NCBI GenBank assembly: GCA_964602245.1
Contig: CAZRPY010000001.1
Span: 88,246-152,245, forward strand
DNA: 64,000 nt
From: an uncultured Methanosarcinales archaeon
GTDB taxonomy: Archaea > Nanobdellota > Nanobdellia > Woesearchaeales > JACPIF01
Direction of reading: 5' to 3'
The position numbers and the translations under genes are program-made. Of the stretch, positions 1,756 to 49,306 are shown in pieces (position 1 is the stretch's first letter; the number at the start of each line of letters is the position of its first letter). The notes beneath the pieces were generated by a model. The model worked only from the letters and a program-made list of their open reading frames with translations, did no database searches and was not told the origin of the DNA.

Positions 1756-2241
1756 TTAATATTTTTGCCCACAACTTAGAGTATCAGTTCCATTCTTTAC
1801 ACATTCATAAAATTGCTGGACATAAGCTGGAATAGTAAGGTTATTAATAACTATGGCATAAGCTAAAAACCAGAGAATTAGACCAATTGCTACAAGAGTT
1901 AGGATAATGTATAATTGCTTTCTTGTAGCTTGATAGAAATGGAATGCTATTGTTATGCAAATGATTAATGCTAGAGATATCGCCATTCCTATTCTTATGG
2001 AGCCTATAAGCAAAGAGAGCCAATATGTATAAGTAGAAAATATGCCAATGCTAAATATTGCTGAGAAGATAAGTTTCTCTACTGTTTCTAGATCAAAATT
2101 GTGTAGTAGCATGTAAAATGCAAATGATACTAGAGTAAACCAAAGCAGCATTATAACAGATGAGAAGCCAAAGTAGATGAAAAGCAGAACTGCTAGAAAG
2201 ATTGCTATTACTGGTAGTAATATCTTAGTTTCTAGTTTCAA
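1756..2241 (-). CDS. polytopic membrane protein, hypothetical
   Basis: 161 aa, 4 TM helices. Overlaps the upstream 526-aa membrane protein by 17 nt and may be functionally linked to it. Confidence 0.45.
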   Translation of the reverse strand: MKLETKILLPVIAIFLAVLLFIYFGFSSVIMLLWFTLVSFAFYMLLHNFDLETVEKLIFSAIFSIGIFSTYTYWLSLLIGSIRIGMAISLALIICITIAFHFYQATRKQLYIILTLVAIGLILWFLAYAIVINNLTIPAYVQQFYECVKNGTDTLSCGQKY

Positions 2242-3805
2242 GTTTATACACCCTTACAAGATCTTTATCATAGACAAGTGTTGCATTCTTTAAGTTATCT
2301 TGCTCCCATCTCTGTAGTGCATCTATTTCTGCCTTAAACCTTGAATCTTGCTGGCTTAATATTACGAAATCTGAGTAATCCAGCAAGACATAATCATGAT
2401 TACTTGTTATATCGTTTCTGACCCAGTCAATATGTCTTAAGCTTAAAGCTTGTATCCATTTCTTTTTAGTATAAACTACTGTCCCTTTTATCAGTATATC
2501 TGAATCTTCTGGAACATTCTTGTTCAGCCATTCCACTACTTGATATTCAAAAGGGGTTAGCCTTAGAATTCCTGTGTAAGCATTATTTAATGTGGAGTAA
2601 GAATTCTTTGCATTAATGGAGACAGCAATTAATAGGAAAACAGCTACAAGGAAATATTTCGCATATTTTTTAAAGTCTTGATTAAAATTGAATAAAGATG
2701 TTATTCCTAACAAGCCTAGAACTGCAACTGGGTAAAGGATATGTGCTTCTGTTTCAATAAACCTTTCTGCCCTAAACAGGCCAAAAACAAAGTCATGGCT
2801 CATAATGTAGAATGCTATTAGCCAACTAATTAGCAATAAATCTTCAGTTTTCCTTCTAAGTATAAGGAAAAGAATTCCTATTAGAAATAAAGGCAGAAGC
2901 CATGGAAACTTAAAATTTCCTAGGCTAATGAAGCCATGCATTTCATTAAAAGAGTAATAAGAATAAGGAACGCCAACTGGTTTAAGAACACCATACCAAT
3001 GAGGGAGGCTGTTTAAATGCTCAGGGTGGAAGCCAAAACCTGAACTGACAGCTCCAGTATAAATAGTACCTGTGCCAAAAGGAAATACATAAAATGGTAA
3101 AATTAACAGGAATGCAAGTGCTATGAAAATACTTATATCTTTGAGCTTAAGTGGAAGCTTCTTTTTCTTTAGATAAAATAAGACTGTAAAGATTGCTGTG
3201 ATTAAGAATGCTAGAATAATTGATTGAGGATGGATATAGAACTGGGTGGCAAGAAATATTGCTGCTAAATAAAGATAATGGGTTTTTTCATTATCAGTTA
3301 GGTATCTATAGAAGCAGTAAACAGTTAAAGGAACTATTGCAAATGATAATACTTGAGGATATTGGCCCCAGATATACCAAAGAATGTCTCTTATTGAGAA
3401 AATTAACAGGAAACTTGAGAGAAAGGCTGCTAGAGTGCCATATAAGTGCCTTATTAGCAGGAAGCTGGTAAAAACAATGACAAAATTGGAGAGTGCATGG
3501 AATAATAATATTCCTATAGTTCTGTTGGCTGAGAGAATTTGGTAGATGGCTGAGGTTAAATGAAACTGTGGAGGATACCATAGCTTGCCAGCTCCTTCAT
3601 CAACATAGCCGCCTGCAGCAATATAATAAGGCAGATAATAAGTAGCCTTATCTTTCTGGCCCATGTAATCTGCCAGAGTGAAATGTGTGCTGGAATCTAC
3701 ATCACCATATGGAACTAAATTGGTTTTGAAAGGCAGAGTCCAGAAGTAAAATGAAATAAGAAATAATACTACTAGAAGCAATAATTCAATGTTTTTCTTT
3801 TCCAT
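2225..3805 (-). CDS. large polytopic membrane protein, putative GT-C fold glycosyltransferase or polymerase
   Basis: 526 aa, more than 10 TM segments, acidic residues in the first loop (YGDVDSS). No WWDYG AglB motif. Confidence 0.45.
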   Translation of the reverse strand: MEKKNIELLLLVVLFLISFYFWTLPFKTNLVPYGDVDSSTHFTLADYMGQKDKATYYLPYYIAAGGYVDEGAGKLWYPPQFHLTSAIYQILSANRTIGILLFHALSNFVIVFTSFLLIRHLYGTLAAFLSSFLLIFSIRDILWYIWGQYPQVLSFAIVPLTVYCFYRYLTDNEKTHYLYLAAIFLATQFYIHPQSIILAFLITAIFTVLFYLKKKKLPLKLKDISIFIALAFLLILPFYVFPFGTGTIYTGAVSSGFGFHPEHLNSLPHWYGVLKPVGVPYSYYSFNEMHGFISLGNFKFPWLLPLFLIGILFLILRRKTEDLLLISWLIAFYIMSHDFVFGLFRAERFIETEAHILYPVAVLGLLGITSLFNFNQDFKKYAKYFLVAVFLLIAVSINAKNSYSTLNNAYTGILRLTPFEYQVVEWLNKNVPEDSDILIKGTVVYTKKKWIQALSLRHIDWVRNDITSNHDYVLLDYSDFVILSQQDSRFKAEIDALQRWEQDNLKNATLVYDKDLVRVYKLETRN

Positions 3806-4563
3806 TACTCACCTAAATGTATGTATTCACCATGAGTGAAAAAGCCTGCTAATTGTTTGATTCTTGCTATTTTTGGGAATAAATCCCTTTCTAAAGAGAT
3901 AATATTATTATCTATAAATTCAAAGATTTCTGGCTTAAGGATATAGATGCCTGCATTAACCACATGTGTTTCTTTTTTCTCACTTTTTTCTCTAAAGTCT
4001 ATAACCAAATCTCCATCTAGGATGGCTGAGCCGTATTCCGAGGGCTTTTCCCTAGTCATTAGGCCCATTGTCATTATTTTATTGTTTTCATTATGCTTCT
4101 TTATCATCTGTTTAATGTTGAAGTTATTATAAATATCTCCTGACATTGCAATAAAGGCTTTGCCTTTAAGTTTATCTGCAAGTGCTTTTAAAGCCTGTGC
4201 ATTGCCCTTTGCCTCTTTTTCTATAACTCTAAAGTTAACTTTTTCCTTGCCTGCTTCCTGTTCAATCTTTTCAACTAAATTACTGTGCTGTGTTACAAGG
4301 AAGATATTGGTTATGTTATTTGCTGCAAAGAAAGATAATTGATGCCTGATTAATGATTGGCCTTTAAATTCTTTTAATGCTATACTATGGTGTCTTCTGC
4401 TAAGCAATAGAACTGCAGTGTCAACTGCAAACTCACCAATGCCTTTAGATAAGAAATATTCAATAGCCTGAGATCTAGATCTTATTGTGCTGTTATCTAT
4501 TCTTGAATCTACTAAGTCTAATAGCTCTTTATCAATTGAAATTGCTATCTTTAGCTTTTTCAT
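3805..4563 (-). CDS. ribbon-helix-helix DNA-binding domain fused to a sugar-phosphate nucleotidyltransferase-like domain
   Basis: N-terminal RSRSQAIEYFL CopG/RHH signature, then an NTP_transferase-like fold. The Gly-rich loop is degenerate (AVLLLSRR instead of LAGGxGxRL). Confidence 0.6.
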   Translation of the reverse strand: MKKLKIAISIDKELLDLVDSRIDNSTIRSRSQAIEYFLSKGIGEFAVDTAVLLLSRRHHSIALKEFKGQSLIRHQLSFFAANNITNIFLVTQHSNLVEKIEQEAGKEKVNFRVIEKEAKGNAQALKALADKLKGKAFIAMSGDIYNNFNIKQMIKKHNENNKIMTMGLMTREKPSEYGSAILDGDLVIDFREKSEKKETHVVNAGIYILKPEIFEFIDNNIISLERDLFPKIARIKQLAGFFTHGEYIHLGE

Positions 4564-4574
4564 ACCTTTGCATA

Positions 4575-4590
4575 CCCCTATTAGTAGGGG
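4575..4590. promoter_or_regulatory. palindrome cccctattagtagggg immediately upstream of the RHH-NTase start
   Basis: 6-bp arms, 4-nt spacer, 12-27 nt upstream of the start codon at 4563. Confidence 0.3.
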
Positions 4591-4734
4591 ATAGAAGAGG
4601 GTATATAAAGGTTATTCTAAATAAATTCAATAGATTGTACAGAGGATAAAGTTACCTTGATTAATCTATCACTTGAATCATAGTAGTAGTTCTTCTTAAA
4701 GAATCGTACCTAAATCGAAAGATTTATATATCAA

Positions 4735-5548: not shown

Positions 5549-6793
5549 ATGGCAATCTTTCTGGGTATGGATATTGATACTATGAGGAAGATAGATTATT
5601 GGGTAGGGATACCTGTATGCTTCTTTCTATCAATTATACATAATATTGGCAAGCTATTTAGAGGTAAAACTCGGGTAAAGAGTCCTAGGAAGTTCTTGTT
5701 TATGGAGATATCTGAGATGGGTAGCACTATTATTGCTTATTCTGCAATGTATTATATCAAAAAGAAGTATCTTGGAGCACAGCTTTACTTTCTTCTATTT
5801 AAAAGGAATAAAGAAAGCATAGATATCCTGAAAATAGTGCCTCAGGAGAATGTTATAACAATAAGAGATAGTTCTTTTCCAGCGTTAACTATTGATACGT
5901 TAGCAGCTATCTGGAAGCTTAGGAGAGAGAGGATTGATGTTTCATTCGACTTAGAGCTTTTTTCCAGATATTCTGCAATAATAAATTATTTAATAGGAGC
6001 TAAAGCTAGAGTTGGATTTCATAACTTTACAGCAGAAGGGCTTTACCGAGGAAATTTACAAACGCATGATGTAATGTACAATGCTTATTATCACATGAGC
6101 CAGAATTTTATGGCATTAGCTAAGGCATTAGAAGGGCCTGATGAAATACCTTTTCTAAAACAAGCAATAGATAAGAAAGAGGTTAAAGTGCCCAAGATAA
6201 TTAGCGAGAAAAGGGATAGAGAAGCTATAATCAAAAAAATACAGACATTAAATCCTGCAATCAATGAGAAAAAGAGAATAATATTGTTAAATCCCGGGGC
6301 TAGCAAATTGTTGCCATTAAGAGAATGGCCTCTGCAATACTATAAAGAATTGACAAAAAATCTGCTTGAGGATAAGAATAATTTTGTTGTTATAACTGGG
6401 CTTATAGGTGATAAGGCTTATGCACAGGAGATTTGTAAGTTTGCTGGAGATAAATGCCTTGATTTTACAGGAATGACTAAGACATTAAGAGAGTTAATTG
6501 ATTTGTATAATACTGCTGATGTATTAGTAACAAATGATTCAGGGCCTGCACATTTCTCTGCATTATCTGATATTAGAACAATTGTGTTTTATGGTCCTGA
6601 GACTCCTGTGCTATATGCACCTTTAGGAAGTAATTATACTGCTTTGTACTCAGGATTTGCCTGCTCGCCTTGTGTTTCTGCATATAATCATAGAAAAAGT
6701 CCATGCACTAACAACTTATGTTTGCAAGTGATAAAGCCTGAGGTTGTTCTTAAACTTATAAAGGATCATTTTAATGCAAGAGGAGATAAGTAA
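5549..6793 (+). CDS. glycosyltransferase family 9 (heptosyltransferase-like)
   Basis: LNPGASKLLPLREWP and VTNDSGPAHFSAL motifs typical of GT9. Confidence 0.8.
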   Translation: MAIFLGMDIDTMRKIDYWVGIPVCFFLSIIHNIGKLFRGKTRVKSPRKFLFMEISEMGSTIIAYSAMYYIKKKYLGAQLYFLLFKRNKESIDILKIVPQENVITIRDSSFPALTIDTLAAIWKLRRERIDVSFDLELFSRYSAIINYLIGAKARVGFHNFTAEGLYRGNLQTHDVMYNAYYHMSQNFMALAKALEGPDEIPFLKQAIDKKEVKVPKIISEKRDREAIIKKIQTLNPAINEKKRIILLNPGASKLLPLREWPLQYYKELTKNLLEDKNNFVVITGLIGDKAYAQEICKFAGDKCLDFTGMTKTLRELIDLYNTADVLVTNDSGPAHFSALSDIRTIVFYGPETPVLYAPLGSNYTALYSGFACSPCVSAYNHRKSPCTNNLCLQVIKPEVVLKLIKDHFNARGDK

Positions 6794-7892
6794 GATGCTG
6801 GTAAAGATTCTAGGCAGGATAATTAAGCCTAAAAATAAAAAGATTCCTGGAACAGTAAGGAACATACTTATTATTAGATCTGGTGCTTTAGGAGATGTGT
6901 TAATGACAACTCCGTTAATAGCTGCTATAAGAAAGAAGTACAAAAATGCTAAGATAAGTTATCTTGTAGGAGAGTGGTCTTCTATTGCTTTAAAAAATAA
7001 TCCTAATATTAATGAGATAATTGAATTTGATGATAGAATAATATTTCAAAGAAATATGGGAGAGATAATTAAACTAATTAGAAAAATTAGGGCTTTAATA
7101 TTTGATATTTGTTTTATATTAGATAAATCATATCATTGGAATCTTTTTGCATATCTTGCAAAAATACCATTTAGAATTGGGTTTGAGAGGAATGGAGAGG
7201 GGTTAGCTAATAACTTGGATGTTAAGTTTGATGCTAGTAAGCATGAGATTGAATATTATATGGATATTGCAAGGCTAATTGGAGTAAAAAATGCTAGCAA
7301 CGAGATGAAAATATTTACAACAGCGAAAGATAGGAAAAAGGTAAATAAATTCTTTAGGAAAAATAAGTTAATAAATAAGATTGTAATAGGTATTGCTGCT
7401 GGAGGGGCTGAAAATCCTGGACAGGCTATGTATGAAAAGAGATGGACGGTTGAAAAGTATATTGGGTTAACAAATATCTTGACTGAGAATCATAAAATAA
7501 TTGTGTTGCTGTTTGGGGGCAGGAATGATGCTAGTGTTAATAAGCTGATTAAGGAACAATGCTTGCATAAAAATCAAGTGTTAGATATTTCTAACTATAA
7601 CTTACATGAAGCTTTTGAAATGATGAAAAAATGCAGTTTATTTGTAACGCATGATTCTGGAGCAATGCATATTGCAGGAGCTTCCAAGGCTAAGCTAATT
7701 GCTTTATTTGGGCCAACTCAGGCAGAAAGGTTTGCTCCCAAGAATGCTATTATTATTAAGAGTCCTGCTGAAGGATGCCCTTGCTATGATATGTATGGCG
7801 ATTATAATAGGAAAGTTGCTGAGAAGTGTATGAGGGCTATCAGCGTTGATACTGTTTACCAGGAGATTAAGAAAATTATTAAGAATATTTAG
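6774..7892 (+). CDS. glycosyltransferase family 9
   Basis: IRSGALGDVLMTTPLIAAIRKKYKNAKISYLV and VTHDSGAMHIAGA. Overlaps the upstream gene by 20 nt; an alternative ATG sits at 6795. Confidence 0.8.
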   Translation: MQEEISKMLVKILGRIIKPKNKKIPGTVRNILIIRSGALGDVLMTTPLIAAIRKKYKNAKISYLVGEWSSIALKNNPNINEIIEFDDRIIFQRNMGEIIKLIRKIRALIFDICFILDKSYHWNLFAYLAKIPFRIGFERNGEGLANNLDVKFDASKHEIEYYMDIARLIGVKNASNEMKIFTTAKDRKKVNKFFRKNKLINKIVIGIAAGGAENPGQAMYEKRWTVEKYIGLTNILTENHKIIVLLFGGRNDASVNKLIKEQCLHKNQVLDISNYNLHEAFEMMKKCSLFVTHDSGAMHIAGASKAKLIALFGPTQAERFAPKNAIIIKSPAEGCPCYDMYGDYNRKVAEKCMRAISVDTVYQEIKKIIKNI

Positions 7893-9000
7893 AGGGATTA
7901 AATTGTATCAAGTTAACTGGAAGTATAAACCAATTTTGTTTATTATTGATATTATTGGATATGTAATTTTCTTCCCATATAGGATATTTAAAAGTAAAAT
8001 AAATGAAAATGAGATTAAGAAAATTCTAGTTATAAGGATTGATGAGATTGGGGATGTTTTATTGACAACACCTGTGTTCAGGGCTTTAAGGAGGAGGTTT
8101 CCTAAAGCTGAGATAAATGTGCTAATTAAGAAGGAGACTAAAGAACTATTGGAAAATAATCCAAATGTCGATAGCTTACTTATATGTGAACAGCCATGGC
8201 TTAAAAAGCCTATAAACTTGTTTTACTATTTCTCATTAATTAAGCAGTTAAGGAAAGAGAAATTTGATTTGGCAATAGAGCTGCATCCAGATGCTAGGAA
8301 TATTTTTCTAGGGTTTATTTCTGCAAGATGTGTTATAGGGCATACGTTTAGAGGCTTAGGTGTTTTGTTAGATAAAGTTACAAAGAGTAATCCTAATAAT
8401 GAACATATCATACAGCTTAATCTTGATGTTGCAAGATTAGTTAGAGCTAATGCTAGTGATGAATTAGAGGTGTATTATAGCAAAGAGAATGCGCAAAATG
8501 CTAAGAAGTTAGTTAGAAAATTAGGGAAGAAAATTGTTTGCATTAACCCTGGAACAGGAAGAGAGAGTAAGTTATGGCTGAATGAAAGATGGGCAAGATT
8601 AGCTGATGTCTTAATTGAGAAATATAATGTTCAGGTAATATTTACAGGAAGTAAGGAAGAGGAAGGTTTAATAAAAGACATCCAATTGCAAATGAGAAAT
8701 AAAAAGCAGACAATTAATTTAGCTGGAAAAACTAGTTTGTTGGATTTAGCTGCTTTGCTTAAGAAATGTAGATTGTTGATAGCAAGTGATTCAGGAACTT
8801 TACATATTGCAAAAGCTTTAGAAGTTCCATTAATAGGATTATATGGGGCTGTTAATCCTATGATATGGGGATATAATGATAAAAATGCCAGAAGTGTTTG
8901 CAAGGCTAAAGAGTTTAAAGAAAATAAAGGCAGGGCTATGATGGAGCTAATACAAATAGAGGATGTTTTGAAAGAGGTAAATGAATTATGGGAAAGGTAA
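7846..9000 (+). CDS. glycosyltransferase family 9
   Basis: IRIDEIGDVLLTTPVFRALRRRFPKAEINVLI and IASDSGTLHIAKA. No in-frame ATG before the conserved core; TTG candidates at 7846 and 7903. Confidence 0.75.
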   Translation: MILFTRRLRKLLRIFRGIKLYQVNWKYKPILFIIDIIGYVIFFPYRIFKSKINENEIKKILVIRIDEIGDVLLTTPVFRALRRRFPKAEINVLIKKETKELLENNPNVDSLLICEQPWLKKPINLFYYFSLIKQLRKEKFDLAIELHPDARNIFLGFISARCVIGHTFRGLGVLLDKVTKSNPNNEHIIQLNLDVARLVRANASDELEVYYSKENAQNAKKLVRKLGKKIVCINPGTGRESKLWLNERWARLADVLIEKYNVQVIFTGSKEEEGLIKDIQLQMRNKKQTINLAGKTSLLDLAALLKKCRLLIASDSGTLHIAKALEVPLIGLYGAVNPMIWGYNDKNARSVCKAKEFKENKGRAMMELIQIEDVLKEVNELWER

Positions 9001-9692
9001 AACTTAGCATTATAATGCCTGTATATAATGAAAGGCATACACTAAAACAAATAATAAAAGAAGTTATGCAACTTAATATTAAGGATGTAGAAAAAGAGGT
9101 AATAATAATTGATGATGGCTCAACTGACGGGTCAAGAGAAATATTAAAGAGCTTAGAGAGATTTGGCAAAGGAGATTGTAAAATATTCTACCATAGAAAG
9201 AATCTTGGCAAAGGAACTGCAGTTAATACTGGAATACAGAGATCTTCAGGCGATATAATAATAATACAGGATGCTGACTTAGAATATGATCCAAAAGAAA
9301 TACCTAAACTGCTTCAGCCAATAATAAATAATGAAGTAGAAGTAGTTTATGGCTCTAGATTCTTAAGACATCATAAGCCTCAATACCCTGTCTATTACTT
9401 TGGTAATATAGTCCTAAGCTGGGTAACAACTTTAATCTTTTTTACAAAAATCACAGATATGGAGACTTGCTATAAAGTTTTTAAAAGGGAGGTTATTAAA
9501 GATATTAAATTAAAGGCTAGAGGATTTGATTTAGAACCTGAGATAACAGCAAAAATTCTTAAGAACGGATATAAGATAAAAGAGTTATCTATTTCTTTTA
9601 GACCAAGGAAATTTGAAGAGGGTAAGAAGATAACATGGAAAGATGGACTTATGGCAATATTCTATCTACTAAAATATAGATTCTTTGATTAA
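8988..9692 (+). CDS. GT2 polyprenyl-phosphate sugar synthase (DPM1/GtrB-like)
   Basis: IIMPVYNE...IIIDDGSTDGS...DADLEYDP GT-A DXD architecture; 234 aa soluble form. Confidence 0.85.
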   Translation: MGKVKLSIIMPVYNERHTLKQIIKEVMQLNIKDVEKEVIIIDDGSTDGSREILKSLERFGKGDCKIFYHRKNLGKGTAVNTGIQRSSGDIIIIQDADLEYDPKEIPKLLQPIINNEVEVVYGSRFLRHHKPQYPVYYFGNIVLSWVTTLIFFTKITDMETCYKVFKREVIKDIKLKARGFDLEPEITAKILKNGYKIKELSISFRPRKFEEGKKITWKDGLMAIFYLLKYRFFD

Positions 9693-9780
9693 ATTATTTA
9701 AAAGATATAATTTATTTACCTATAATTTACTTATAGAATACAATATCTTTATATACTAAATATTAGTTTCTCGAATAAAG

Positions 9781-10920
9781 ATGGTTAAGAATAGTTTGAC
9801 TAAAAAAACTAAAGTATCAGTTATTATTCCTTTTCTGAATGAAGAAAAGTCAATAGGCAGATGTATTAGAAAAGTACAGGCTGTATTCAAGAGAAATAAT
9901 ATAAAAGGGGAAATAGTTACCATTGACTCAGATTCAACTGATAATTCTGCAAAGATTGCTAAATCATTAGGAGCTATTGTTGTAAATCAGCCATTAAGAG
10001 GTTATGGAAATGCTCTTAGGAAAGGGTTTGAAGTTGCTACAGGAGATATTATTGTTATGGGGGATGCGGATGATACATATAATTTTGATGAAATGCCAAA
10101 ACTATTAAGTCCTATAATTAATGAAGGTTATGATATTGTCAATGGCAACAGATTTGAAGGAAAATTAATGCCTGGGGCTATGAGCATATCTCATATTATA
10201 GGCAACAAGATGCTAACAATGTTTGTAACATTATTCTTTGGAAAGTTTAGCTCAGACCCTTATTCTGGGTACAAAGCAATAACAAAAGAGGCCTTAAATA
10301 AGATGGATTTAAAATCTAATAACTGGGAACTGAACTCAGAAATGATTTTGAAAGGCAAGAAAGCAAGACTAAAGACAAGAGAGGTTCCAATACATTATTA
10401 TCCAAGAGAGGGGGAATCAAAATTAAGTAGTATTGATGCTGCTTGGAAAAATATTAAGTTCATGTTACTCAACAGCCCTAATCATGTTTTCATTGTACCA
10501 GGAGCCATTATTATGTTTATTGGTTTTATTGCATTCTTACTTTTATATTTTAAAGGGATAACTATAGGTGCAATTAAGCTAAGTTATCTGTCATTGCTTC
10601 TTTCTGGAATTGTTATAATAATTGGTTTCCAAATACTATCTTTAGGATTTGTAGGAAAGATTTTTTTTGAAAGGAAAGAAAGTAATAATTATGTCAAAAG
10701 AATACTAACACTAGAGCAAGGACTTTTGCTAGGTTTTGCATTGCTTCTATCTAGTATAATTTTTGGTTTAGCTATATTATATAACTGGTATGTTGCAGGA
10801 TTTGCCGTTCTTGGTTTTAATAATATTGGGCTTGGAATAATATCGTTTGTGCTGACATCAATGGGTGTTCAAATAATTTTTACATCATTCCTCATGACTA
10901 TGATAAGGATTGATAAATAA
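9781..10920 (+). CDS. GT2 polyprenyl-phosphate sugar synthase with C-terminal TM helices
   Basis: VIIPFLNEE...TIDSDSTDNS...GDADDTY, followed by a hydrophobic C-terminal anchor. Confidence 0.8.
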   Translation: MVKNSLTKKTKVSVIIPFLNEEKSIGRCIRKVQAVFKRNNIKGEIVTIDSDSTDNSAKIAKSLGAIVVNQPLRGYGNALRKGFEVATGDIIVMGDADDTYNFDEMPKLLSPIINEGYDIVNGNRFEGKLMPGAMSISHIIGNKMLTMFVTLFFGKFSSDPYSGYKAITKEALNKMDLKSNNWELNSEMILKGKKARLKTREVPIHYYPREGESKLSSIDAAWKNIKFMLLNSPNHVFIVPGAIIMFIGFIAFLLLYFKGITIGAIKLSYLSLLLSGIVIIIGFQILSLGFVGKIFFERKESNNYVKRILTLEQGLLLGFALLLSSIIFGLAILYNWYVAGFAVLGFNNIGLGIISFVLTSMGVQIIFTSFLMTMIRIDK

Positions 10921-10959
10921 TCAATAAATTATATATATTACATCTGTAAATCCGTTCAT

Positions 10960-12525
10960 ATGAAGTTATATACAGAGAAATTTGATAAACTAGTAGTTGC
11001 TGTAATTGCTTTTTCTTTTATTCTTAGAATATATTTATCTCTAATTTCTGTACCACTGAATGGAGTTGAAACTATACACCCAAATATTATTAGGTATATG
11101 GCTGAGACCAAAACAATACCTCTCCTTGCACCTTTACCTCCAACAGCTGACTTGTTTCATTATACTCCCTTATTTCATATTATTGCCTCATTGTTGTATT
11201 TGATTTTTATCCATGTGAGTTACACTGCTGCTGAATTTTCTATCAAGATGTTATCTCCTATTTTTGCTTTATTTTCAATGATTTTGATATACCTCATTTC
11301 TATAAAATTATTTGGTAGCAAAAAAATAGGGTTTTATGCAGTATTGTTTTTTGCGTTTCTGCCATTAAGCATAAGCATGAGTAGCTATATGACCCTTGAT
11401 AATGAATTTGCTTTTTTAATCTTACTGAGCTTTTACTTTTTCATTACTAATCACTTTTTATTATCTGCGCTGTCATTAGGTCTTTCCTACAATGTGAAAG
11501 CAATTGCACTCTTTTACTTTCCATTTTTTGCATACTGCGTGTATGTTAAGTATAAATCTAGCAATTATGTTAGAAAAATGCTATTATATTTTGTGTTGAC
11601 ATTGCTTCTGGTTGCGCCTTGGATGATTAGAAATGCTATTATGCTGGATAATCCTGTTTACCCTTTGCTTAATAACTTTTTTAATGGGTGCAAGTACGAG
11701 ATACTTGATGATACATTTAACAAAGGCGGAAATACCTATAATTTCTTTTCTAAGAATTTTCTAGCAAAATTCTTTTTTGGGATATTCGGATTCCCAGAGG
11801 AGAATAAAGACATTAAATTTACTTACTATGGAATTTCACAAGATAGTGTAAGGAGTCTTATTAAGTTAGACTCTCAGTTTGCAGTAATATTGCTGAACTT
11901 ATGGGCTCTTGCAATTGTTATTTTTTCTATCCCAATAATCTTAGGGCTTTATTATTTATTTAAGAATAAAGAAAAATTCTCCATTTATGTTATTGTAATC
12001 ATTGTGTCAGGTATGATAATACATATGCTGTATATTTATCTGGCAGGCGATACAGCTACTAGATATTTTAGCCCAGTAATACCTTTCCTTGCCATTCTGT
12101 GGGCATATGGGTTAGTTATGACTATACAAAAATCTTTTTTCCGAGCATCATTTGTAAAAATAAGTGGAAAGATGTTTATTGTTGCTATGCTGCTTGGATT
12201 TATGGCAACTGAAGCATATAAAACCCAGCTCCTAGCATTTGGTGTTCATAAATATGACTCTTTATTTCTCTGGATAAATACCTATATTCCAGATGACGCA
12301 TATATTTATGAAGTCAGTGGAATAATTACTTATTACACTAATAATTATTATACTGATTCAGTTGAAAAACTGAAAGAAACTAAAGGATATATAATCATAC
12401 AAGATCCTAAGCAAATATATGGACCACCGTTATATATTCCATCAAAGATTCCAGATGAAATTGAATACTATAAAGAATTGTACTATGATACAAAATCAGG
12501 AGTTAAAATATATAAAGTCAGCTGA
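10960..12525 (+). CDS. large polytopic membrane protein, putative GT-C-like glycosyltransferase
   Basis: 521 aa, about 11 TM segments, aromatic-rich C-terminal soluble domain. Confidence 0.45.
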   Translation: MKLYTEKFDKLVVAVIAFSFILRIYLSLISVPLNGVETIHPNIIRYMAETKTIPLLAPLPPTADLFHYTPLFHIIASLLYLIFIHVSYTAAEFSIKMLSPIFALFSMILIYLISIKLFGSKKIGFYAVLFFAFLPLSISMSSYMTLDNEFAFLILLSFYFFITNHFLLSALSLGLSYNVKAIALFYFPFFAYCVYVKYKSSNYVRKMLLYFVLTLLLVAPWMIRNAIMLDNPVYPLLNNFFNGCKYEILDDTFNKGGNTYNFFSKNFLAKFFFGIFGFPEENKDIKFTYYGISQDSVRSLIKLDSQFAVILLNLWALAIVIFSIPIILGLYYLFKNKEKFSIYVIVIIVSGMIIHMLYIYLAGDTATRYFSPVIPFLAILWAYGLVMTIQKSFFRASFVKISGKMFIVAMLLGFMATEAYKTQLLAFGVHKYDSLFLWINTYIPDDAYIYEVSGIITYYTNNYYTDSVEKLKETKGYIIIQDPKQIYGPPLYIPSKIPDEIEYYKELYYDTKSGVKIYKVS

Positions 12526-38602: not shown

Positions 38603-39544
38603 TTAAGCTTTACTCATCTCTTGTCTAAAATATTCTATTGTTTTAGCTAAACCTTCTGTAAGCCCTACTTTTGGCTGCCAGTCTAGCCCTTTACTAGATT
38701 TAGCAATGTCTGGACATCTGACATGAGGATCATCTACAGGCAATGGCTTAAATACTATCTTGCTTTTGCTTTTTGTTAATTTAATTATCTCCTGAGAAAA
38801 TTCTAGAACTGTCATTTCATCTGGATTGCCTAAATTTACAGGATCATTTATCTTGGAATTCATTAATTTATAGATTCCATCAATTAAATCTGAGACATAG
38901 CAGAAGCTTCTTGTCTGCTTTCCATCTCCAAAAACTGTTATGTCTTGGTTTCTTAGAGCTTGGTTGATAAAAGCTGGGACTACTCTGCCATCATCTGCTC
39001 GCATTTTTTCTCCGTAAGTATTAAATATTCTAGCGATTTTTGTATCTATCTTATGAATTCTATGATATGCCATTGTAAGTGCTTCTGCAAATCTCTTGGA
39101 TTCATCGTAGCATCCTCTTAACCCAATAGGATTAACATTACCCCAGTAAGTTTCTGACTGTGGGTTTACTAACGGATCACCATAGACTTCTGAGGTTGAT
39201 GCTAGCATGAAAACTGCTTTCTTATCTTTAGCTAAGCCTAATAAGTTGTGAGTGCCTAGAGCTCCTGCTTTTAAAGTTTGGATTGGAATTTTCTGATAAT
39301 CAATAGGAGAGGCTGGAGAGGCGAAATGCAGAACAAAGTTTAACTTGCCTTCAACTGAGACATGCTTGGAAACATCATGGTCGACATAAGAGAATCTCTT
39401 ATGGCCCATTAAATGCTGTATATTTTTTAGGTTACCTGTTATTAAATTGTCCATGCAGATTACTTCATGTCCTGTAGCGAGCAGGAACTCGCATAAATGA
39501 CTGCCAATAAAACCTGCTCCTCCAGTAATAAGTATCCTTGTCAT
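38603..39544 (-). CDS. UDP-glucuronate decarboxylase (UDP-xylose synthase)
   Basis: [22 protein letters not shown]...[10 protein letters not shown], 313 aa, UXS-type extended SDR. Confidence 0.85.
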
Positions 39545-40290
39545 TTGAAACCTTTGAATTCGTTCTTTGCTGTCTCCAAAGCCTCTTTCCAGCCTACATC
39601 AAACCATTTTTCATTAAAGATTTTACCATATACAGGCTCTCTTCCTATAAGCCATATCATGAAATAGCCCATTTTATCAGCATTATTTCCATCATTGAGG
39701 TATTTTTCAATTAAATTAATTTTTTCTTTTGGAAAGAAGTAAGCGCCTTGAGAAATTAAAGTGGTTTTTGGCGTTGGAGATTTTTCCATAAACTCAATAA
39801 ATTTTCCGTCTTCATCAATAACTACAGTGCCTTGCTCCTGAGCAACCTTAATTGATTTTGAATCGTGTAAGGGATTGACAATAGCCTTTCGTTTCTTGAA
39901 TTCTTCAAACGCTGTCTTAAGTGAAAAATTAAAAAGATTATCCCCTGCAACGATTAAAAGGTCATCATTAATTTCTGCCTTTTCTAGAACGAAACTGATG
40001 TCGCCAATCTGGCCGAGTCTATTTTCATTTGAAGTTGTTTCATCATTATAAAGAGTTACTGGAACCTTACATTTGAAGGATTTGAGCCATTCCTGGAAGA
40101 TGCTGTGGAATTTCTGATTAGTTACTATATAAATATGGTTGACTTCTTCAATTGTAAGAATATTATTAATGATATGTTCAATTATTGGCTTATCATTAAC
40201 TGGAATCAATGGCTTGGGAGTTTCTTGAGTAAGTGGCCAAAGCCTGGTTGCATATCCAGCTGCTGGGATTATTGCTTTCATAAGAATCAC
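39541..40290 (-). CDS. sugar-1-phosphate nucleotidyltransferase (likely UTP--glucose-1-phosphate uridylyltransferase)
   Basis: [28 protein letters not shown] canonical GxGxR motif; 249 aa. Confidence 0.8.
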
Positions 40291-41576
40291 CTACCAACTG
40301 AGATGTACTTAAATCCTAGTTGTTTCATTTTTAGAGGGTCAAATATATTTCTTCCATCTATAATTATTTTTGTTCTCATTAGATCTCTTATTTTTTCAAA
40401 ATTTAGCTCAGAGAATTCTTTCCATTCTGTAAGGATAAGCAAGGCATCTGAATTTTCTGCGACTTGATAAGGATTATCATAATATTCTACGCCTTGCAAG
40501 ACTTCTTTTGCCTTTTCCTCTGCCTTTGGGTCATAAGCTTTTATTATAGCACCTTCATGCTTTAAAGTGTTAATGATCTCTATTGAAGGAGCACTTCTCA
40601 TATCATCTGTATTAGGCTTGAAAGCCAAGCCAAGAACTCCTATGTTTTTGCCTTTAACAATCCATAGTGCTTTTTCCACTTTTCTTATGAAATCAAATTT
40701 CTGTAGTTCATTGATTTCTTCAACTGCTTTTAGCAACTTAAAGTTATAGCCGTATTTATCAGCGATTTTAATGAAAGCTGCAACATCTTTTGGAAAGCAA
40801 CTTCCACCGTAGCCAATACCTGCATTAAGGAATTGTCTGCCTATTCTTTTATCATAGCCCATGCCATCTGCAACTTTTGTAACATCTGCTCCCGTAAGTT
40901 CACAAATATCAGCTATTGCATTAATGAAAGATATTTTAGTTGCTAAGAAAGAATTTGAGGCATGTTTAATTATTTCTGCACTTCTTATATCTGTTATAAC
41001 TATTGGAGTGTTTAAAGGCTCATAGAGCTTTTTCATTAACTCTGCAGCCTTTTCAGATGATGTGCCTATGACAATCCTGTCTGGATGAAAAGTGTCATAA
41101 ACAGCGCTGCCTTCTCTTAAGAATTCTGGATTAGAGACAACATCAAAGGGAACATTATTTATATTATACATTTGTATGGTTTCAGCAACCTTCTCGCCAG
41201 TTTCTACTGGAACAGTACTTTTTTCTACTATAATCTTATAGCTATCTAAATGCTCTGCAATGCTTCTGGCAACATTTTCAACATAAGAAAGGTCTGATTC
41301 ACCACTTTCTTTTGAAGGAGTACCTACACAGATAAAAATAATATCGCTTTTCTTAATAGCCTCTTCCATATTTGTAATGAAGATAAGTCTTTTGGCTTTC
41401 ATGTTTTTATGAACTAATTCATCTAAGCCTGGCTCGTAAATAGGGATAATGCCTTTATTCAAGTTTGCAATCTTGTGCTCGTCTATATCAACGCCTACTA
41501 CGTCATGGCCGAGCTCCGAGAGCATGGCAGCAGTGGTGAGCCCTACGTATCCAATTCCTACGATTCCAATCTTCAT
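40287..41576 (-). CDS. ugd: UDP-glucose 6-dehydrogenase
   Basis: MKIGIVGIGYVGLTTAAMLS NAD motif, GGSCFPKD catalytic Cys, 429 aa. Confidence 0.9.
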   Translation of the reverse strand: MKIGIVGIGYVGLTTAAMLSELGHDVVGVDIDEHKIANLNKGIIPIYEPGLDELVHKNMKAKRLIFITNMEEAIKKSDIIFICVGTPSKESGESDLSYVENVARSIAEHLDSYKIIVEKSTVPVETGEKVAETIQMYNINNVPFDVVSNPEFLREGSAVYDTFHPDRIVIGTSSEKAAELMKKLYEPLNTPIVITDIRSAEIIKHASNSFLATKISFINAIADICELTGADVTKVADGMGYDKRIGRQFLNAGIGYGGSCFPKDVAAFIKIADKYGYNFKLLKAVEEINELQKFDFIRKVEKALWIVKGKNIGVLGLAFKPNTDDMRSAPSIEIINTLKHEGAIIKAYDPKAEEKAKEVLQGVEYYDNPYQVAENSDALLILTEWKEFSELNFEKIRDLMRTKIIIDGRNIFDPLKMKQLGFKYISVGR

Positions 41577-41577
41577 T

Positions 41578-42780
41578 TTATTTACCTCTCACAGAATATT
41601 TTCCTAGAACAATTTGTTGCAGTTCATTTCTCTTTTTCATAGTACGTATAAGTTGTCTTAACCTAAAAGAGACATTAGAGTTCGAAGTGAAACAAGTTTG
41701 AATTTGATATAGAGTAATTGTTTTATTCGAGAAATTGGTTAATATGTGTTTTCTAATGGCTGTAGCTTCATCCTTCAAACGAGCTTTTCGTAGTGTGGTT
41801 TTAGCCATCTTTACTTTTCTTTGAAAAACTTCTTCTCTATGTAATAAACTTAGGTCATATTTTTTAAGAAGACTGAACAAACGAGAAAGTTGAATAACTC
41901 CTTCTGAGCTGATTCTTATGACCCACTTATCTCCTTTTTTATTTTTTGACCAAGATATACCGAATCTTGTTAATAATTTACCAAATTTTTCAAGAAGTAG
42001 TAAATTTCCCTCTTGATGTAATGTTATCTCAGAGTTTGACTTTGCTTTAGACATTCCAGCTTCATCCATAAAAAATGCGCACAAGAGAGCTAGCTCATAT
42101 TCTTTTCCTAGTGATTCAGATGCCTTAATTATATTACTTCTTATGGCCTTTCCAGAATCCAGTTTTGTCATAAATGATCCCGCCTTTCTGATTAACTGCG
42201 GGATAGTTAGACCATGTTTGGTGCTCTGTGGAAGTCTATCATAAATAAAACCCATCTTATTTAAGAGCTCTATTATTTTTAATTGCCCTTCTGGTTTTTG
42301 ATACCAAACAAATTTGTTTTTATCCTTTCGAATATGACCATCACCAACAGAGAGACAAAAAATAAAATGCCAAAGCGGGCTATATATGATGGGGAATTTA
42401 CCGGCGAAGGTGATTGAGCTACTTCCACAGTCATCGTTAAATTGTACTATTTCATTAAGAAGAGTCTTTTCTGCAGACAAATCTACAATCTTTTTAAAGG
42501 TTTGAGTGTCAATTTTTTCATTTTTAGTAAAGTTATGAAACCAATAATCAGGGACATTTAGAGTCTTAGCGATGTGAAATTTAAATCTATGGCTACTTGT
42601 TAAAAGATTTATTATGTCATCTTTTGCTTTATCGGTAAGTTTTACATACCCCAAAATATCCCAAGGAAATACTAAATTTTGATTTTGATTTTCCATAATT
42701 TGTCCAGATTTGGGAAAGTCAAATAAAAATGTATTGGATTTGGAATTTGGAAGTAAAACTCTCTTTAGCATCGTTCCCAT
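41578..42780 (-). CDS. double-motif LAGLIDADG-like protein (homing-endonuclease fold candidate)
   Basis: Two candidate motifs, FIFCLSVGDGHI and LLCAFFMDEAGMS, about 100 aa apart. 400 aa basic protein. Confidence 0.35.
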   Translation of the reverse strand: MGTMLKRVLLPNSKSNTFLFDFPKSGQIMENQNQNLVFPWDILGYVKLTDKAKDDIINLLTSSHRFKFHIAKTLNVPDYWFHNFTKNEKIDTQTFKKIVDLSAEKTLLNEIVQFNDDCGSSSITFAGKFPIIYSPLWHFIFCLSVGDGHIRKDKNKFVWYQKPEGQLKIIELLNKMGFIYDRLPQSTKHGLTIPQLIRKAGSFMTKLDSGKAIRSNIIKASESLGKEYELALLCAFFMDEAGMSKAKSNSEITLHQEGNLLLLEKFGKLLTRFGISWSKNKKGDKWVIRISSEGVIQLSRLFSLLKKYDLSLLHREEVFQRKVKMAKTTLRKARLKDEATAIRKHILTNFSNKTITLYQIQTCFTSNSNVSFRLRQLIRTMKKRNELQQIVLGKYSVRGK

Positions 42781-42850
42781 ATGGCTTTAGAATGCTGGCA
42801 TATTTAAATATCTTACCTTTATCCTACTTTATGCGATAGATTTAAATAGA

Positions 42851-43675
42851 GTGTTATATTTCTTGCAAATATCAAATATGAAAGAGAAGATTAGCATTAC
42901 AATTGAAAAGAACGTAATTGATGAGATAGATTCAATTATTGATAATATTTATATAAGGAACAGAAGCCAGGCAATAGAGCATTTGGTTAAGACTGCCCTT
43001 GGGGAGAATAAGATTGCTGTGATATTAGCTGGGGGACCAGAAGAACAGTTAAGAACAAGAACAAAAAAGTTTTGTTTTGAGCTTGAGGTTAAAGGACTTA
43101 GCTTAATAGAGAATGTTATTAAAAAGTTAAGAGACAGCAAATTTAAGACTATTTATATTATAGGGAGGCATGCTATTATTACTAAGATATTTGAGATAGT
43201 TAAAGATGGAAATGATTATGGTGTAAAAGTTAATTATTTTGAAGAAAAGATTTCTAAAGGAACTGCTGATTCCTTAAGAATCCTAAAAGGAAAGATAAAT
43301 ACTACATTTCTAGTGGTTTATTGTGATATATATTTTGGCAGAATAAATTTAGATGAGATTTGGAAGGATCATTTGAAACAAGGAGCTTTGTGCACTTTAA
43401 TGCTTACAACCTCTCCTAAGCCTAGTGAGAAAGGTACTGTTGTGGTTGAAGGAACTAAGATACTGCAGTTTATACAGAAGCCTAGGCAATCAGATATATA
43501 CCTAGTGTTTTCTCCTATATTTGCTGCTGAGCCTGAGATATTTGATTATGAGGGCAGTAGCTTGGAAAAAGATGTATTTTCAGCATTGGCTGAGAAAGGT
43601 TTGTTGAATGGGCATATGAGTTCAGAGAAAGAGATACATGTGAGGAGCAGGGAAGAGGCTGATAGGATAAGGTAA
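42851..43675 (+). CDS. ribbon-helix-helix domain fused to nucleotidyltransferase-like domain (paralog of 3805..4563)
   Basis: NRSQAIEHLV RHH signature, then AVILAGGPEEQLRTRTKK (degenerate G-loop) and an NTP_transferase-like fold. Confidence 0.6.
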   Translation: MLYFLQISNMKEKISITIEKNVIDEIDSIIDNIYIRNRSQAIEHLVKTALGENKIAVILAGGPEEQLRTRTKKFCFELEVKGLSLIENVIKKLRDSKFKTIYIIGRHAIITKIFEIVKDGNDYGVKVNYFEEKISKGTADSLRILKGKINTTFLVVYCDIYFGRINLDEIWKDHLKQGALCTLMLTTSPKPSEKGTVVVEGTKILQFIQKPRQSDIYLVFSPIFAAEPEIFDYEGSSLEKDVFSALAEKGLLNGHMSSEKEIHVRSREEADRIR

Positions 43676-43676
43676 A

Positions 43677-44699
43677 ATGCAAATTTCTAAGAAAGAATTA
43701 AATAAGCTAAAGAAGATTAGAGAAGAAATTAGAAAAAGTTCTTTTAAACCAATAGGTTGGATAAAAAATCCACATCTGCAAACTATAATAGGTGTTTCTT
43801 CTAAGTTTAAGGGAGAATTTGAGAGTAAAAGATTAATAATTCCTGTTGAGAAAGGAAAGGTTGCTGTAGATTGCTCATGGAAATTTAATAGAGAGAATAA
43901 GCCTACATTAATTATAATGCATGGAATTGTTGGATCTAGCTCTGCATCTTATGTTAAGAGAATTGCTTATAAAGCTTTTAAGAATGGGTTCAATGTTGCT
44001 AGAATAAATTTAAGAGGTTTTGGTAATACAGAGCATTTATCTGAGAAAATATATCATGCTGGACAGAGTAATGATATGAAGCGAGTAATAAATTATATGA
44101 ATAAGAAATATAAGCTCAGTAAATTTTATCTTTTAGGATTTTCTTTAGGAGGGAATTTGTGCTTGAAATTTGCTGGAGAATCAAAAGATAATAAGGTTAG
44201 AGGTGTTGCTTGCATATCGCCATTAGTTGATTTAGAAGTGAGCTGGAAGCCAATAGAAAATCCAGAGAACATACTTTATAGAGTAATATTTATCAAAGGT
44301 TTAAAAAATCTTATAAGAAGAAAGGCAAAACTATTTCCTAATATCTATTACCTTAAAAAATTAAAAGGTCTAAATACAATTAAAGATTTTGATGAGAGAT
44401 ACCAGGCATCTTTAAATGGCTTTAAGGATGCTATTGATTACTATAAGAAAACAAGTGCAATCAGGGTTATTAATAAAATTAGGATTCCTACTTTAATTAT
44501 TCATTCTCATGATGATACACTTACACCTTATGAGCCATTAACTAGAAAAGATGTTAGGGATAATCCTTATATTATTATTCTTATATCGCATTACGGTGGG
44601 CATGTGGGATTTCTTGGGAAAGATGAAAATGAGGATAGACATTGGGCAGAGAATAGAGTTATGGAGTTTTTTAAGATTCTAGAATCGCAAGGCTTTTAA
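43677..44699 (+). CDS. alpha/beta hydrolase (YheT-like)
   Basis: GFSLGGN nucleophile elbow; HG oxyanion region; 340 aa. Confidence 0.75.
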   Translation: MQISKKELNKLKKIREEIRKSSFKPIGWIKNPHLQTIIGVSSKFKGEFESKRLIIPVEKGKVAVDCSWKFNRENKPTLIIMHGIVGSSSASYVKRIAYKAFKNGFNVARINLRGFGNTEHLSEKIYHAGQSNDMKRVINYMNKKYKLSKFYLLGFSLGGNLCLKFAGESKDNKVRGVACISPLVDLEVSWKPIENPENILYRVIFIKGLKNLIRRKAKLFPNIYYLKKLKGLNTIKDFDERYQASLNGFKDAIDYYKKTSAIRVINKIRIPTLIIHSHDDTLTPYEPLTRKDVRDNPYIIILISHYGGHVGFLGKDENEDRHWAENRVMEFFKILESQGF

Positions 44700-46175: not shown

Positions 46176-47936
46176 TTATTTTACTGTTACACTTTTGGCA
46201 AGATTTCTTGGTTTGTCTGGATCTAGACCTTTTTCAACAGCTAGATAATAGGCGAGTATCTGTATGGGTATTATGCTTAAGATTGGATTAGCCATACCAT
46301 ATTCAGGAACTTTTATGAAATAATCGTATACCTCATTATTATTGCTATTAATTCCAATTATATAGCCACCTCTGGCTTTGACTTCCATTGCATTTGACAG
46401 GATTTCTTTTTTTGTATGTTCTGTTGATAAAACAATGACAGGAATTCCTTCTTCTATTAATGCTATTGTGCCATGTTTAAGCTCTCCTCCGGCAAAGCCT
46501 TCAGCATGAATATAGCTTACCTCTTTTATTTTTAATGCTCCTTCTAATGCACTTGGATAAGCCAGATCTCTGCCTATTAAGAATATGCTATGATGATTTT
46601 TAAGATTGTTTGCTAAATTCTTTAATTTCTGTTCATTTTCTTTTATAATTTTATTAACCTCCATAGAAGATTTTATGACTAACTTTTTTCCATCATTTAA
46701 CTTATTTACACAGCCATAAGCAAGCATAGTAAGTATTGCTAACTGAGCTGTATAACTTTTAGTGCTTAATACACATATCTCTGGACCACAGTTCATCATT
46801 ATATTCTCATCAGAGAGAAGAGTTAGAGTAGAGCCTACAACGTTTGTAATAGAAATGATTTTAACGCCTTTTGATTTTGCTGTTTGAACTGCTTCAAGCA
46901 GGTCTGCTGTTTCTCCTGACTGGGATACTGCTATCATTAGAGTTTTATTTGTAAGGAATTCCTCATAATTCTTGAACTCGGATGCTAAAACCACATTTAC
47001 ATGCTTTTTTGCAATATGAGAAAAGACATAAGATGCTGAGACACAAGCATGATAGCTTGTTCCACAGCCTACTAAAAATACTCCAAAAGCCTTTTTTATA
47101 GCATTAATAACTTTTTTAATAAGCTTAGGATCCTGCTGGACTGATTTTTTAATAGTAGAGCTTTGCTCTTCAATCTCTTTCATCATAAAATGCTTATAAT
47201 CACCTTTCTTTGACTGCTCAAAATCCCAGTGCATAAGGAATATCTTTTTCTTGACTGGCTTGCCCGTCTTGAAATTCAGGATTTCTATTTTTTCATTAAT
47301 AGATACCATTTCATTATCAGCAAGAAGCAATGATTTTTTAGTAGATTCTATAAAAGGGCTGAAATCAGATGTAATATAAATACCATCTTTGGCTAAGCCT
47401 AATACTAATGGTGAATTTAGCCTTGCCCCAAGGATAGTATCTGAGGTTTCTTCAACAGCAACTATTGAAAAGCTGCCCTTTAATTTTTTTAAAGTTTCAA
47501 GGAAGGCTGCCCTGACATTTTTTCCATTTTTCATGAAATATTCTATTAAGTTGGGGATAACTTCTGTGTCTGTTTCGCTAATAAATTTAAAGCCTTTTGA
47601 TTGCAGAAAATTTTTAAGCTCCTGATAATTCTCTATTATACCATTGTGCACAACTGCTATCCTGAAATTATTTGAAAAGTGCGGATGCGCATTTGCTTCA
47701 GTAACTTTGCCATGAGTTGCCCATCTTGTGTGACCTATTGCTAAATTTGATCTGCTGAGGTTAAGGTCTTTAATAGTAATATCCTCAATTTTGCCAACTT
47801 TCTTTATGTAGGTGAATTTACTGTTTTTAGAACAGATACCCCAGGAATCGTAGCCACGGTATTCTAATTTTTTAAGTCCTTCTAATACAATTTCTACAGC
47901 ATTTCTTTTTCCTTTATAGCCAATTATTCCACACAT
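46176..47936 (-). CDS. glmS: glutamine--fructose-6-phosphate aminotransferase
   Basis: MCGIIGY N-terminal nucleophile; two SIS domains; ends KPRNLAKSVTVK; 586 aa. Confidence 0.95.
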   Translation of the reverse strand: MCGIIGYKGKRNAVEIVLEGLKKLEYRGYDSWGICSKNSKFTYIKKVGKIEDITIKDLNLSRSNLAIGHTRWATHGKVTEANAHPHFSNNFRIAVVHNGIIENYQELKNFLQSKGFKFISETDTEVIPNLIEYFMKNGKNVRAAFLETLKKLKGSFSIVAVEETSDTILGARLNSPLVLGLAKDGIYITSDFSPFIESTKKSLLLADNEMVSINEKIEILNFKTGKPVKKKIFLMHWDFEQSKKGDYKHFMMKEIEEQSSTIKKSVQQDPKLIKKVINAIKKAFGVFLVGCGTSYHACVSASYVFSHIAKKHVNVVLASEFKNYEEFLTNKTLMIAVSQSGETADLLEAVQTAKSKGVKIISITNVVGSTLTLLSDENIMMNCGPEICVLSTKSYTAQLAILTMLAYGCVNKLNDGKKLVIKSSMEVNKIIKENEQKLKNLANNLKNHHSIFLIGRDLAYPSALEGALKIKEVSYIHAEGFAGGELKHGTIALIEEGIPVIVLSTEHTKKEILSNAMEVKARGGYIIGINSNNNEVYDYFIKVPEYGMANPILSIIPIQILAYYLAVEKGLDPDKPRNLAKSVTVK

Positions 47937-47973
47937 GTTGTTGCTTTTGATATATAGTTGATATATAGATTAA

Positions 47974-49304: not shown

Positions 49305-49306
49305 AA

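Follow-up and report, generated by a model that had tools for sequence, protein, structure and literature searches.

Two paralogous RHH-nucleotidyltransferase genes

We analyzed a 64-kb stretch of DNA from an uncultured archaeon (contig CAZRPY010000001.1, positions 88,246-152,245; hereafter the window) that carries two genes, denoted A and B, in which a ribbon-helix-helix (RHH) domain of the kind that binds DNA is followed by a nucleotidyltransferase (NTase)-like domain. Our main subject is gene B.

42878..43675, + strand: gene B; RHH (residues 1-46, 42878-43015) and NTase-like domain with a degenerate G-loop (residues 47-265)
3805..4563, - strand: gene A, 252 aa; RHH and NTase-like paralog of B, G-loop absent

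In the list of open reading frames (ORFs) gene B runs from a GTG (42851..43675, +). We place its true start at the ATG at 42878, since the orthologs (264-267 aa, opening with M(P)K(T)KISITI) start there and a TATA box at 42841-42848 overlaps the GTG. Read from this ATG the protein has 265 aa and is identical to protein P0001.

A and B are true paralogs with a shared architecture, as an earlier note on this DNA had proposed: BLASTP aligns them collinearly from end to end (31% identity over 261 aa, E 2e-32), and the two strings that the note quoted, NRSQAIEHLV and AVILAGGPEEQLRTRTKK, are present. Both match Pfam NTP_transferase (PF00483; E 1.3e-17 for B and 8.9e-22 for A) after an N-terminal segment of about 46 residues. 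Single-sequence matches of that segment are weak (NCBIfam NikR N-terminal, ~1e-3); for Pfam RHH_1, A scores 15.6 bits, below the cut-off, and a third paralog found in relatives (C, described below) 24.7 bits, above it. A profile of the segment built from 36 diverse members of the RHH-NTase family matched the RHH domain of Escherichia coli NikR (1q5v) at E 4.6e-8 over residues 2-46, Pyrococcus horikoshii NikR (2bj1) at 1e-4 and CopG at 5e-3, and in the family alignment the base-contacting beta-strand and the NRS(Q/H)AIE helix of the RHH are conserved.

An AlphaFold2 monomer model of B (mean pLDDT, a per-residue confidence score, 86.8) has helices at residues 11-20 and 29-40 and an extended N terminus, followed by an RmlA/GMPP-like fold; the RHH strand forms only in a dimer. 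Foldseek matched the model to RmlA, VTC1, GMPPB and GMPPA with TM scores (a measure of fold similarity) of 0.7-0.76. The C-terminal 220 aa thus have the NTase fold and not the ACT-like nickel domain of NikR, and the protein ends after it, lacking the C-terminal left-handed beta-helix (LbH) domain of GMPPA. The arrangement is that of a DNA-binding domain fused to an enzyme-like effector, as in regulators of the NrtR or trigger-enzyme type.

When 223 members of the A and B families were aligned with two canonical NTases encoded in the window, the loss of catalytic motifs became apparent. The canonical loop GxGTRLxPLTxxxPKPL, which holds the catalytic Arg and Lys, is missing from both families. 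In the B family it is substituted (consensus GGNEEHLRI / AVILLGGNEEHLRI-SKDEYRP; B itself, AGGPEEQLRTRTKK), and in the A family it is largely deleted (AVLLLKGEHQSIA---LKEIKG). The earlier note's atypical G-loop therefore stands for B, but in A the loop is absent rather than atypical (AVLLLSRRHHSIALKEFKG; A reads LLSRRHHSIA with a deletion). The second metal-binding Asp (WxDxG) is a His in both families (EIH(V/I) in B, Y(I/L)HLG in A), and profile alignments to solved NTases and GDP-mannose pyrophosphorylases begin only past the G-loop. The GD, G(T/N)AD(S/A)L and (E/Q)KP motifs are still present in A and B. Since the catalytic motifs are gone and the operon next to B already has a canonical NTase of its own (39541-40290), A and B look like ligand-binding pseudo-enzymes, probably, and not like pyrophosphorylases.

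A and B belong to different orthologous families that are separately conserved in metagenomes of Woesearchaeota, Pacearchaeota and Nanoarchaeota, with more than 100 clusters (90% identity) at 62%-66% identity for B and a similar number at 56%-60% for A. The names that homologs carry put the source organism of the window in the Woesearchaeota (DPANN). A joint A and B profile recovered 255 clusters (50% identity) at E <= 1e-30; among the 150 best matches listed, the majority were full length and aligned from profile position 1-4. The listed matches form a continuum, from proteins with a canonical G-loop and catalytic Asp (P0390, P0304, P0328 and P0386) to many lineages, A and B included, in which both are lost. 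The canonical-loop clade has members in Altiarchaeota, Nanoarchaeota, Woesearchaeota and Aenigmatarchaeota, with no annotation beyond "nucleotidyltransferase family protein"; P0328 (locus L173), a canonical-loop protein, is divergent to RmlC. Paralog C was found 7 kb from B in loci L052 and L073, and a second RHH-NTase is similarly placed in L080. In both loci examined (L052 and L073), C has a degenerate loop and is divergent to RmlC-RmlB(-RmlD).

These data also bear on an alternative in which A and B are trigger enzymes, that is, nucleotidyltransferases still active through an unusual loop that bind DNA as well, in the manner of PutA, BirA, NadR and RbkR. PutA also uses an RHH domain. The superfamily members with fully canonical catalytic residues, one of them beside RmlC, and the GD, EKP and GxA(D)xL motifs retained by A and B speak for it. 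The A, B and C families have, however, lost the second metal Asp throughout, as well as the Arg and Lys of the G-loop, and the target operons have their own canonical NTase or CTP_transf_like enzyme. We consider this alternative unlikely.

The contig with P0328 also encodes trigger factor and ClpP. Both are usually bacterial; the fusion may occur in bacteria too, or the bin may be mixed.

Partner operons and upstream repeats

We compared the surroundings of B across species, using one genome per species and the 80 best loci, all of them B orthologs with 55%-79% identity. A UDP-glucose/GDP-mannose dehydrogenase (UGDH) gene lies directly upstream of B on the opposite strand in 71 of the 80 species, usually followed by an NTase and an epimerase/dehydratase. 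Genes 40287-41576, 39541-40290 and 38603-39544 of the window form this same operon.

38603..42780, - strand: operon divergent from B, its predicted target (Pfam and conserved synteny)
41578-42780, - strand: LAGLIDADG-like ORF, 400 aa, an insertion specific to this genome
40287-41576, - strand: UGDH (Pfam)
39541-40290, - strand: canonical NTase, 249 aa (Pfam)
38603-39544, - strand: NAD epimerase/dehydratase (Pfam)
42801..42848: intergenic control region separating B from the divergent operon (sequence, and conservation in orthologous intergenic regions)
42801-42810: left palindromic TATA box, TATTTAAATA
42810-42837: three tandem 10-11-bp repeats, ATCTTACC / TTATCCTAC / TTTATGCGAT
42841-42848: right TATA box, TTTAAATA, 30 nt before the B ATG

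The intergenic regions between B and UGDH are typically 56-130 bp long and contain a nearly invariant element, TtTAAATATCTTACCnTTATCCTACtTTATcCgA, made of three tandem 10-11-bp repeats with a TAC core beside a palindromic TATA box. Its core was present in 70 of 72 orthologous intergenic regions at up to six substitutions in 27 positions, and in 62 at up to three. The 12-mer TAAATATCTTAC was exact in 66 of 71 regions; in the control, the 120 nt downstream of B, no 12-mer was shared by more than 13 of 66. The element is near-invariant although the B proteins are only 55%-65% identical. Within 1.2 Mb of sequence around the 80 orthologs, all 70 copies were upstream of B, 69 of them less than 450 nt away and one at 450 nt exactly. 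It is single in the window (42801-42848), where no further copy with up to three mismatches was found and a looser two-repeat pattern gave chance-level matches only.

The repeats sit upstream of both divergent promoters and over both positions of the transcription factor B recognition element (BRE). A role of the element as RNA was considered and rejected: two divergent TATA boxes enclose it in the window, as in other long-type regions, which leaves it untranscribed, so it must act as DNA.

The 400-aa ORF lies between this element and UGDH, with its stop abutting the UGDH ATG. It carries the LAGLIDADG-like motifs FCLSVGDGHI and CAFFMDEAGM, a subthreshold Pfam LAGLIDADG_3 match (E 0.024) and a pairwise match over the motif to the insert in the L010 UGDH (E 0.006); a PDB sequence search gave no match. 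The closest relative, L009, does not have the ORF. The UGDH ORF of L010 is 899 aa long, with a probable intein, and the L005 epimerase, at 651 aa, has a faint LAGLIDADG_3 match. Inteins and homing endonucleases seem to have a hot spot in the UGDH-NTase-epimerase operon.

On the 3' side, the adjacent alpha/beta hydrolase (43677-44699) was rejected as a conserved partner, having no homolog in any of the 80 loci. We noted the sequence GGTGGACAGCTT just 3' of B in ~13-16 of 66 loci (L009-L088, 120 nt downstream), which could be a conserved element or a gene start.

Orthologs of A have different partners. One side is typically divergent to a heptose-nucleotide pathway, SIS(GmhA-like)-x-PfkB-HAD-CTP_transf_like-GT2, and the other holds GT9-DUF2304-GT2-STT3(AglB). 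The A gene of the window belongs to a derived subclade (relatives 73%-97% identical) of this heptose-operon-associated family, in which A is followed in conserved order by a PMT_2-like gene; the A ortholog of L171 has a GT9 gene as its immediate divergent neighbor.

2225..3805, - strand: PMT_2-like GT-C membrane glycosyltransferase, 526 aa; weak PMT_2 match, start overlaps the A stop by one base
4561..4609, - strand: promoter region of A; TATA box TTTATATA at 4609-4602, direct GTATG half-sites at 4575-4571 and 4565-4561 (spaced 10 bp)
5549..12525, + strand: operon divergent from A (three GT9, two GT2, PMT_2), candidate A target; two small inserted ORFs in between
5565..5580, + strand: tentative degenerate A-type palindrome GTATGGATATTGATAC, ~20 bp 3' of the TATA-like TTTTAAATAA at the GT9 operon start

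The one-base overlap indicates that the PMT_2-like gene is cotranscribed with A. The two small ORFs between A and the GT9 operon (98 and 108 aa, overlapping; 4735-5354, +) may be an inserted toxin-antitoxin pair splitting A from the divergent operon; the second, of 108 aa, has weak ParE/YoeB toxin matches (E 0.03-0.05, below the cut-off).

Regions upstream of A-family genes carry repeats of their own. An exact GTATGAA-N3-TTCATAC palindrome occurs in 40 of 74 regions, and 45 of 46 copies (with up to two mismatches) lie 85-111 bp from the ATG; some variants read GTATGA-N15-TCATAC. Three tandem repeats, TAATAC / TACTAC / TCATAC, occur in 46 of the 74 regions, and in 32 of those 46 they stop 1-10 bp short of the ATG. 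Neither canonical operator was found in the 64-kb window. Its A subclade conserves instead TTTATATA-N~25-GGTATGCAAAGGTATG, which overlaps the start codon (four independent subclade sequences); in the window the second GTATG half-site overlaps the A ATG. GTATG-N5-GTATG has one exact copy in the window, at the A start, with one-mismatch matches at chance level. The palindrome at 5565-5580 was noticed post hoc, its count is within chance for the window, and its position alone is suggestive.

The C family has three repeats of its own at the same position, TTGTTAC / AGTAATA / AGTATTAC. The RHH beta-strand reads KISITI in B, KIAIS(I/L) in A and RVSISI in C, and the repeats differ alongside, as expected if the fused RHH reads them. 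Conserved co-localization with a pathway is thus accompanied by a conserved candidate operator (B with UGDH, 71/80, and its operator, 70/72; A with the heptose operon; C with rml).

This covariation bears on a second alternative, in which the NTase-like domain mainly binds and inhibits the catalytic NTase of its operon, the RHH serves for oligomerization instead of specific DNA binding, and the repeats are core promoter or the sites of another factor. GMPPA offers a precedent: it is a noncatalytic NTase paralog with a disrupted catalytic loop that binds GDP-mannose and acts as a feedback sensor, regulating GMPPB (PMC11228364), and comparisons of fold and sequence place both GMPPA and GMPPB among the top matches of our proteins. 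Such a role would leave unexplained a NikR-type RHH with a conserved base-contacting strand and NRS(Q/H)AIE helix, and repeats that vary between paralog families along with that strand; the LbH domain of GMPPA is also absent here. We regard this alternative as quite improbable.

Proposed local control and the intervening glycan region

We favor a reading, to which we give a probability of roughly 0.6, in which B, and in parallel A, is a local one-component transcription factor combining a NikR-type RHH with an NTase-derived sensor and controlling the adjacent sugar operon. The NTase fold, devoid of its catalytic G-loop, would probably serve as a ligand-sensing and oligomerizing module. Oligomers of B would place RHH dimers on the three tandem ~10-bp repeats at 42810-42837 and so control both the B gene and the divergent (LAGLIDADG-like)-UGDH-NTase-epimerase operon. 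The signal would come from that same pathway, as a nucleotide sugar or a sugar-1-phosphate (UDP-glucose, UDP-glucuronate or a compound derived from them). A would act likewise on heptose-type glycan genes, which here are those of the A-PMT-like operon to which it belongs and, probably, of the GT9 operon divergent from it. Each of A, B and C would be tied to one nucleotide-sugar pathway and regulate itself.

Paralogy, domain identities, loss of catalytic motifs, conserved synteny and the paralog-specific repeats were observed directly. Several points weigh against this reading. We infer from sequence the binding of the repeats, ligand binding and the identity of the ligand, the absence of catalysis and the sign of regulation; the sign is not readable from operator position, and loss of the G-loop is no proof that every catalytic activity is gone. 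Another factor could bind the conserved repeats, and the search for further sites in this genome covered 64 kb only. The A gene of the window comes without the canonical operators of its family, and its proposed targets derive from the short GTATG repeat and one palindrome recognized post hoc.

The earlier note had gone further: it placed A and B at the two ends of a glycan island and suggested that together they could bound and control the cluster as a whole. The geometry is as it described: the genes are 38.3 kb apart on opposite strands, both reading outward. They do flank a glycan-synthesis region (4.7-42.8 kb) with five GT9, three GT2, a GT4, a PMT_2, a Wzx-like flippase, epimerases, methyltransferases, UGDH and an NTase, along with three B12-binding radical-SAM proteins and two carbamoyltransferases. 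As ends they qualify less well, because glycan genes continue beyond both: the PMT_2-like gene and a methyltransferase past A on the left, and GlmS, GlmU-like and PGM/PMM genes past B on the right. The tie of the fusion to glycan loci was borne out: in genomes of other archaea it is strongly associated with loci for glycans and nucleotide sugars, and a regulatory role is the best reading of both genes.

That A and B together delimit and coregulate the whole 38-kb region is, in our judgment, highly improbable. It would fit their flanking positions and outward orientation, the fact that the operons divergent from them are the two outermost inward-reading ones, and one other genome in which ~19 kb of glycan genes lie between the two. 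The outward orientation follows, however, from each regulator being divergent to its own inward-reading operon. The genes belong to separate families with their own partner operons and operator-like repeats, and these operators are local and single-copy. Nor is the bracketing conserved: no A-type gene occurs within 10 kb of B in the 80 species, and in GCA_016185865.1 the two genes share one orientation at a distance of 18.7 kb, whereas in GCA_016181305.1 they lie on different contigs. GC content is flat (0.31-0.36), with no compositional boundary across the region. A mobile island was likewise rejected, there being no GC shift and no tRNA genes in the window.

Several features of the region are of interest in their own right. 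The three B12-radical-SAM proteins, a ferredoxin/PterinBD protein and the two carbamoyltransferases (13601-15007, 22189-23757, 35581-37014, 21551-22150, 29233-30933 and 33712-35415) suggest unusual sugar modifications such as C-methylation and carbamoylation. The five GT9 (heptosyltransferase-family) genes, in an archaeon, lie within 5549-9000, 16669-17730 and 37525-38577. Relatives (L006-L008) encode a complete GmhA-kinase-phosphatase-nucleotidyltransferase heptose pathway beside GT9 and AglB/STT3, which points to N-glycans with heptose in Woesearchaeota; the window itself has none of the genes of that heptose pathway. To the right of B, the GlmS, GlmU-like and PGM/PMM cluster (UDP-GlcNAc supply; 46176-50668, -) is syntenic in L010, L039, L065 and L073, and NFACT_N, AAA_18 and HTH_3 genes are syntenic across many B loci, which marks the B side as conserved core genome.

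The wider family and its known counterparts

Taking the three paralogs together, we see an even chance that RHH-NTase proteins are a DPANN-wide, previously unrecognized group of nucleotide-sugar-sensing transcription factors. Active RHH-fused pyrophosphorylases would have given rise to pseudo-enzyme sensors and then to paralogs dedicated to single pathways (UDP-glucuronate, NDP-heptose and dTDP-rhamnose), each reading its product at a three-repeat operator on a bidirectional archaeal promoter. With active-looking and degenerate forms side by side in one superfamily, this would be a clear case of an enzyme turned sensor. Two further proteins (P0505 and P0510, 462-483 aa) join a TrmB-type helix-turn-helix domain (PF01978) to NTP_transferase and hexapeptide repeats.

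DPANN archaea are uncultured or hard to grow, and we know of almost no work on their gene regulation; if the proposal is correct, no regulators of glycan precursor supply had, to our knowledge, been described in the group before these. DPANN cell-surface glycans are probably central to host attachment, and sharply defined, near-invariant operators together with guessable ligands provide directly testable entry points. The database names "nucleotidyltransferase family protein" and "hypothetical" probably mis-assign catalytic steps in metabolic reconstructions. As to the source genomes, the records of L009, L012, L013, L021-L023 and others are titled "uncultured Methanosarcinales archaeon" despite Woesearchaeota-type B loci; on such metagenome-assembled genomes the title is probably a placeholder or mislabeled taxonomy.

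We found no description of the RHH-NTase combination, or of a nucleotide-sugar NTase fold as a regulator, in the literature searched, whose coverage was incomplete. The closest counterpart in layout is NikR, in which an RHH of the same type precedes a C-terminal sensing and oligomerizing domain. The E. coli NikR box is GTATGA-N16-TCATAC, and the GTATGA/TCATAC half-sites of the A family, including the GTATGA-N15-TCATAC variants, resemble it. NikR differs in that its C terminus is an ACT-like nickel-binding domain in place of an NTase fold; the targets of A, B and C are nucleotide-sugar operons, and the B and C operators consist of three direct repeats.

Among NTase-fold proteins, GMPPA is the nearest in kind, a top structural and sequence match with a similarly disrupted loop, but it inhibits GMPPB by protein-protein contact, carries an LbH domain at its C terminus and lacks any DNA-binding domain. 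The RmlA/GMPP/HddC enzymes (PF00483) share the fold and the GD, EKP and base-binding motifs, whereas A and B lack the signature G-loop and second metal Asp and have gained an N-terminal RHH.

In logic, the proposed system is closest to NrtR, a Nudix-like pseudo-enzyme regulator formerly mis-annotated as an enzyme (PMC2330246), and to the trigger enzymes RbkR, PutA, BirA and NadR (PMC5397151). They too couple a DNA-binding domain to an enzyme or enzyme-like effector, are encoded beside the pathway they control and have operators found by comparative genomics; their folds and pathways (Nudix, riboflavin kinase, proline dehydrogenase) are different from the nucleotide-sugar NTase fold that A and B would use for the same purpose.

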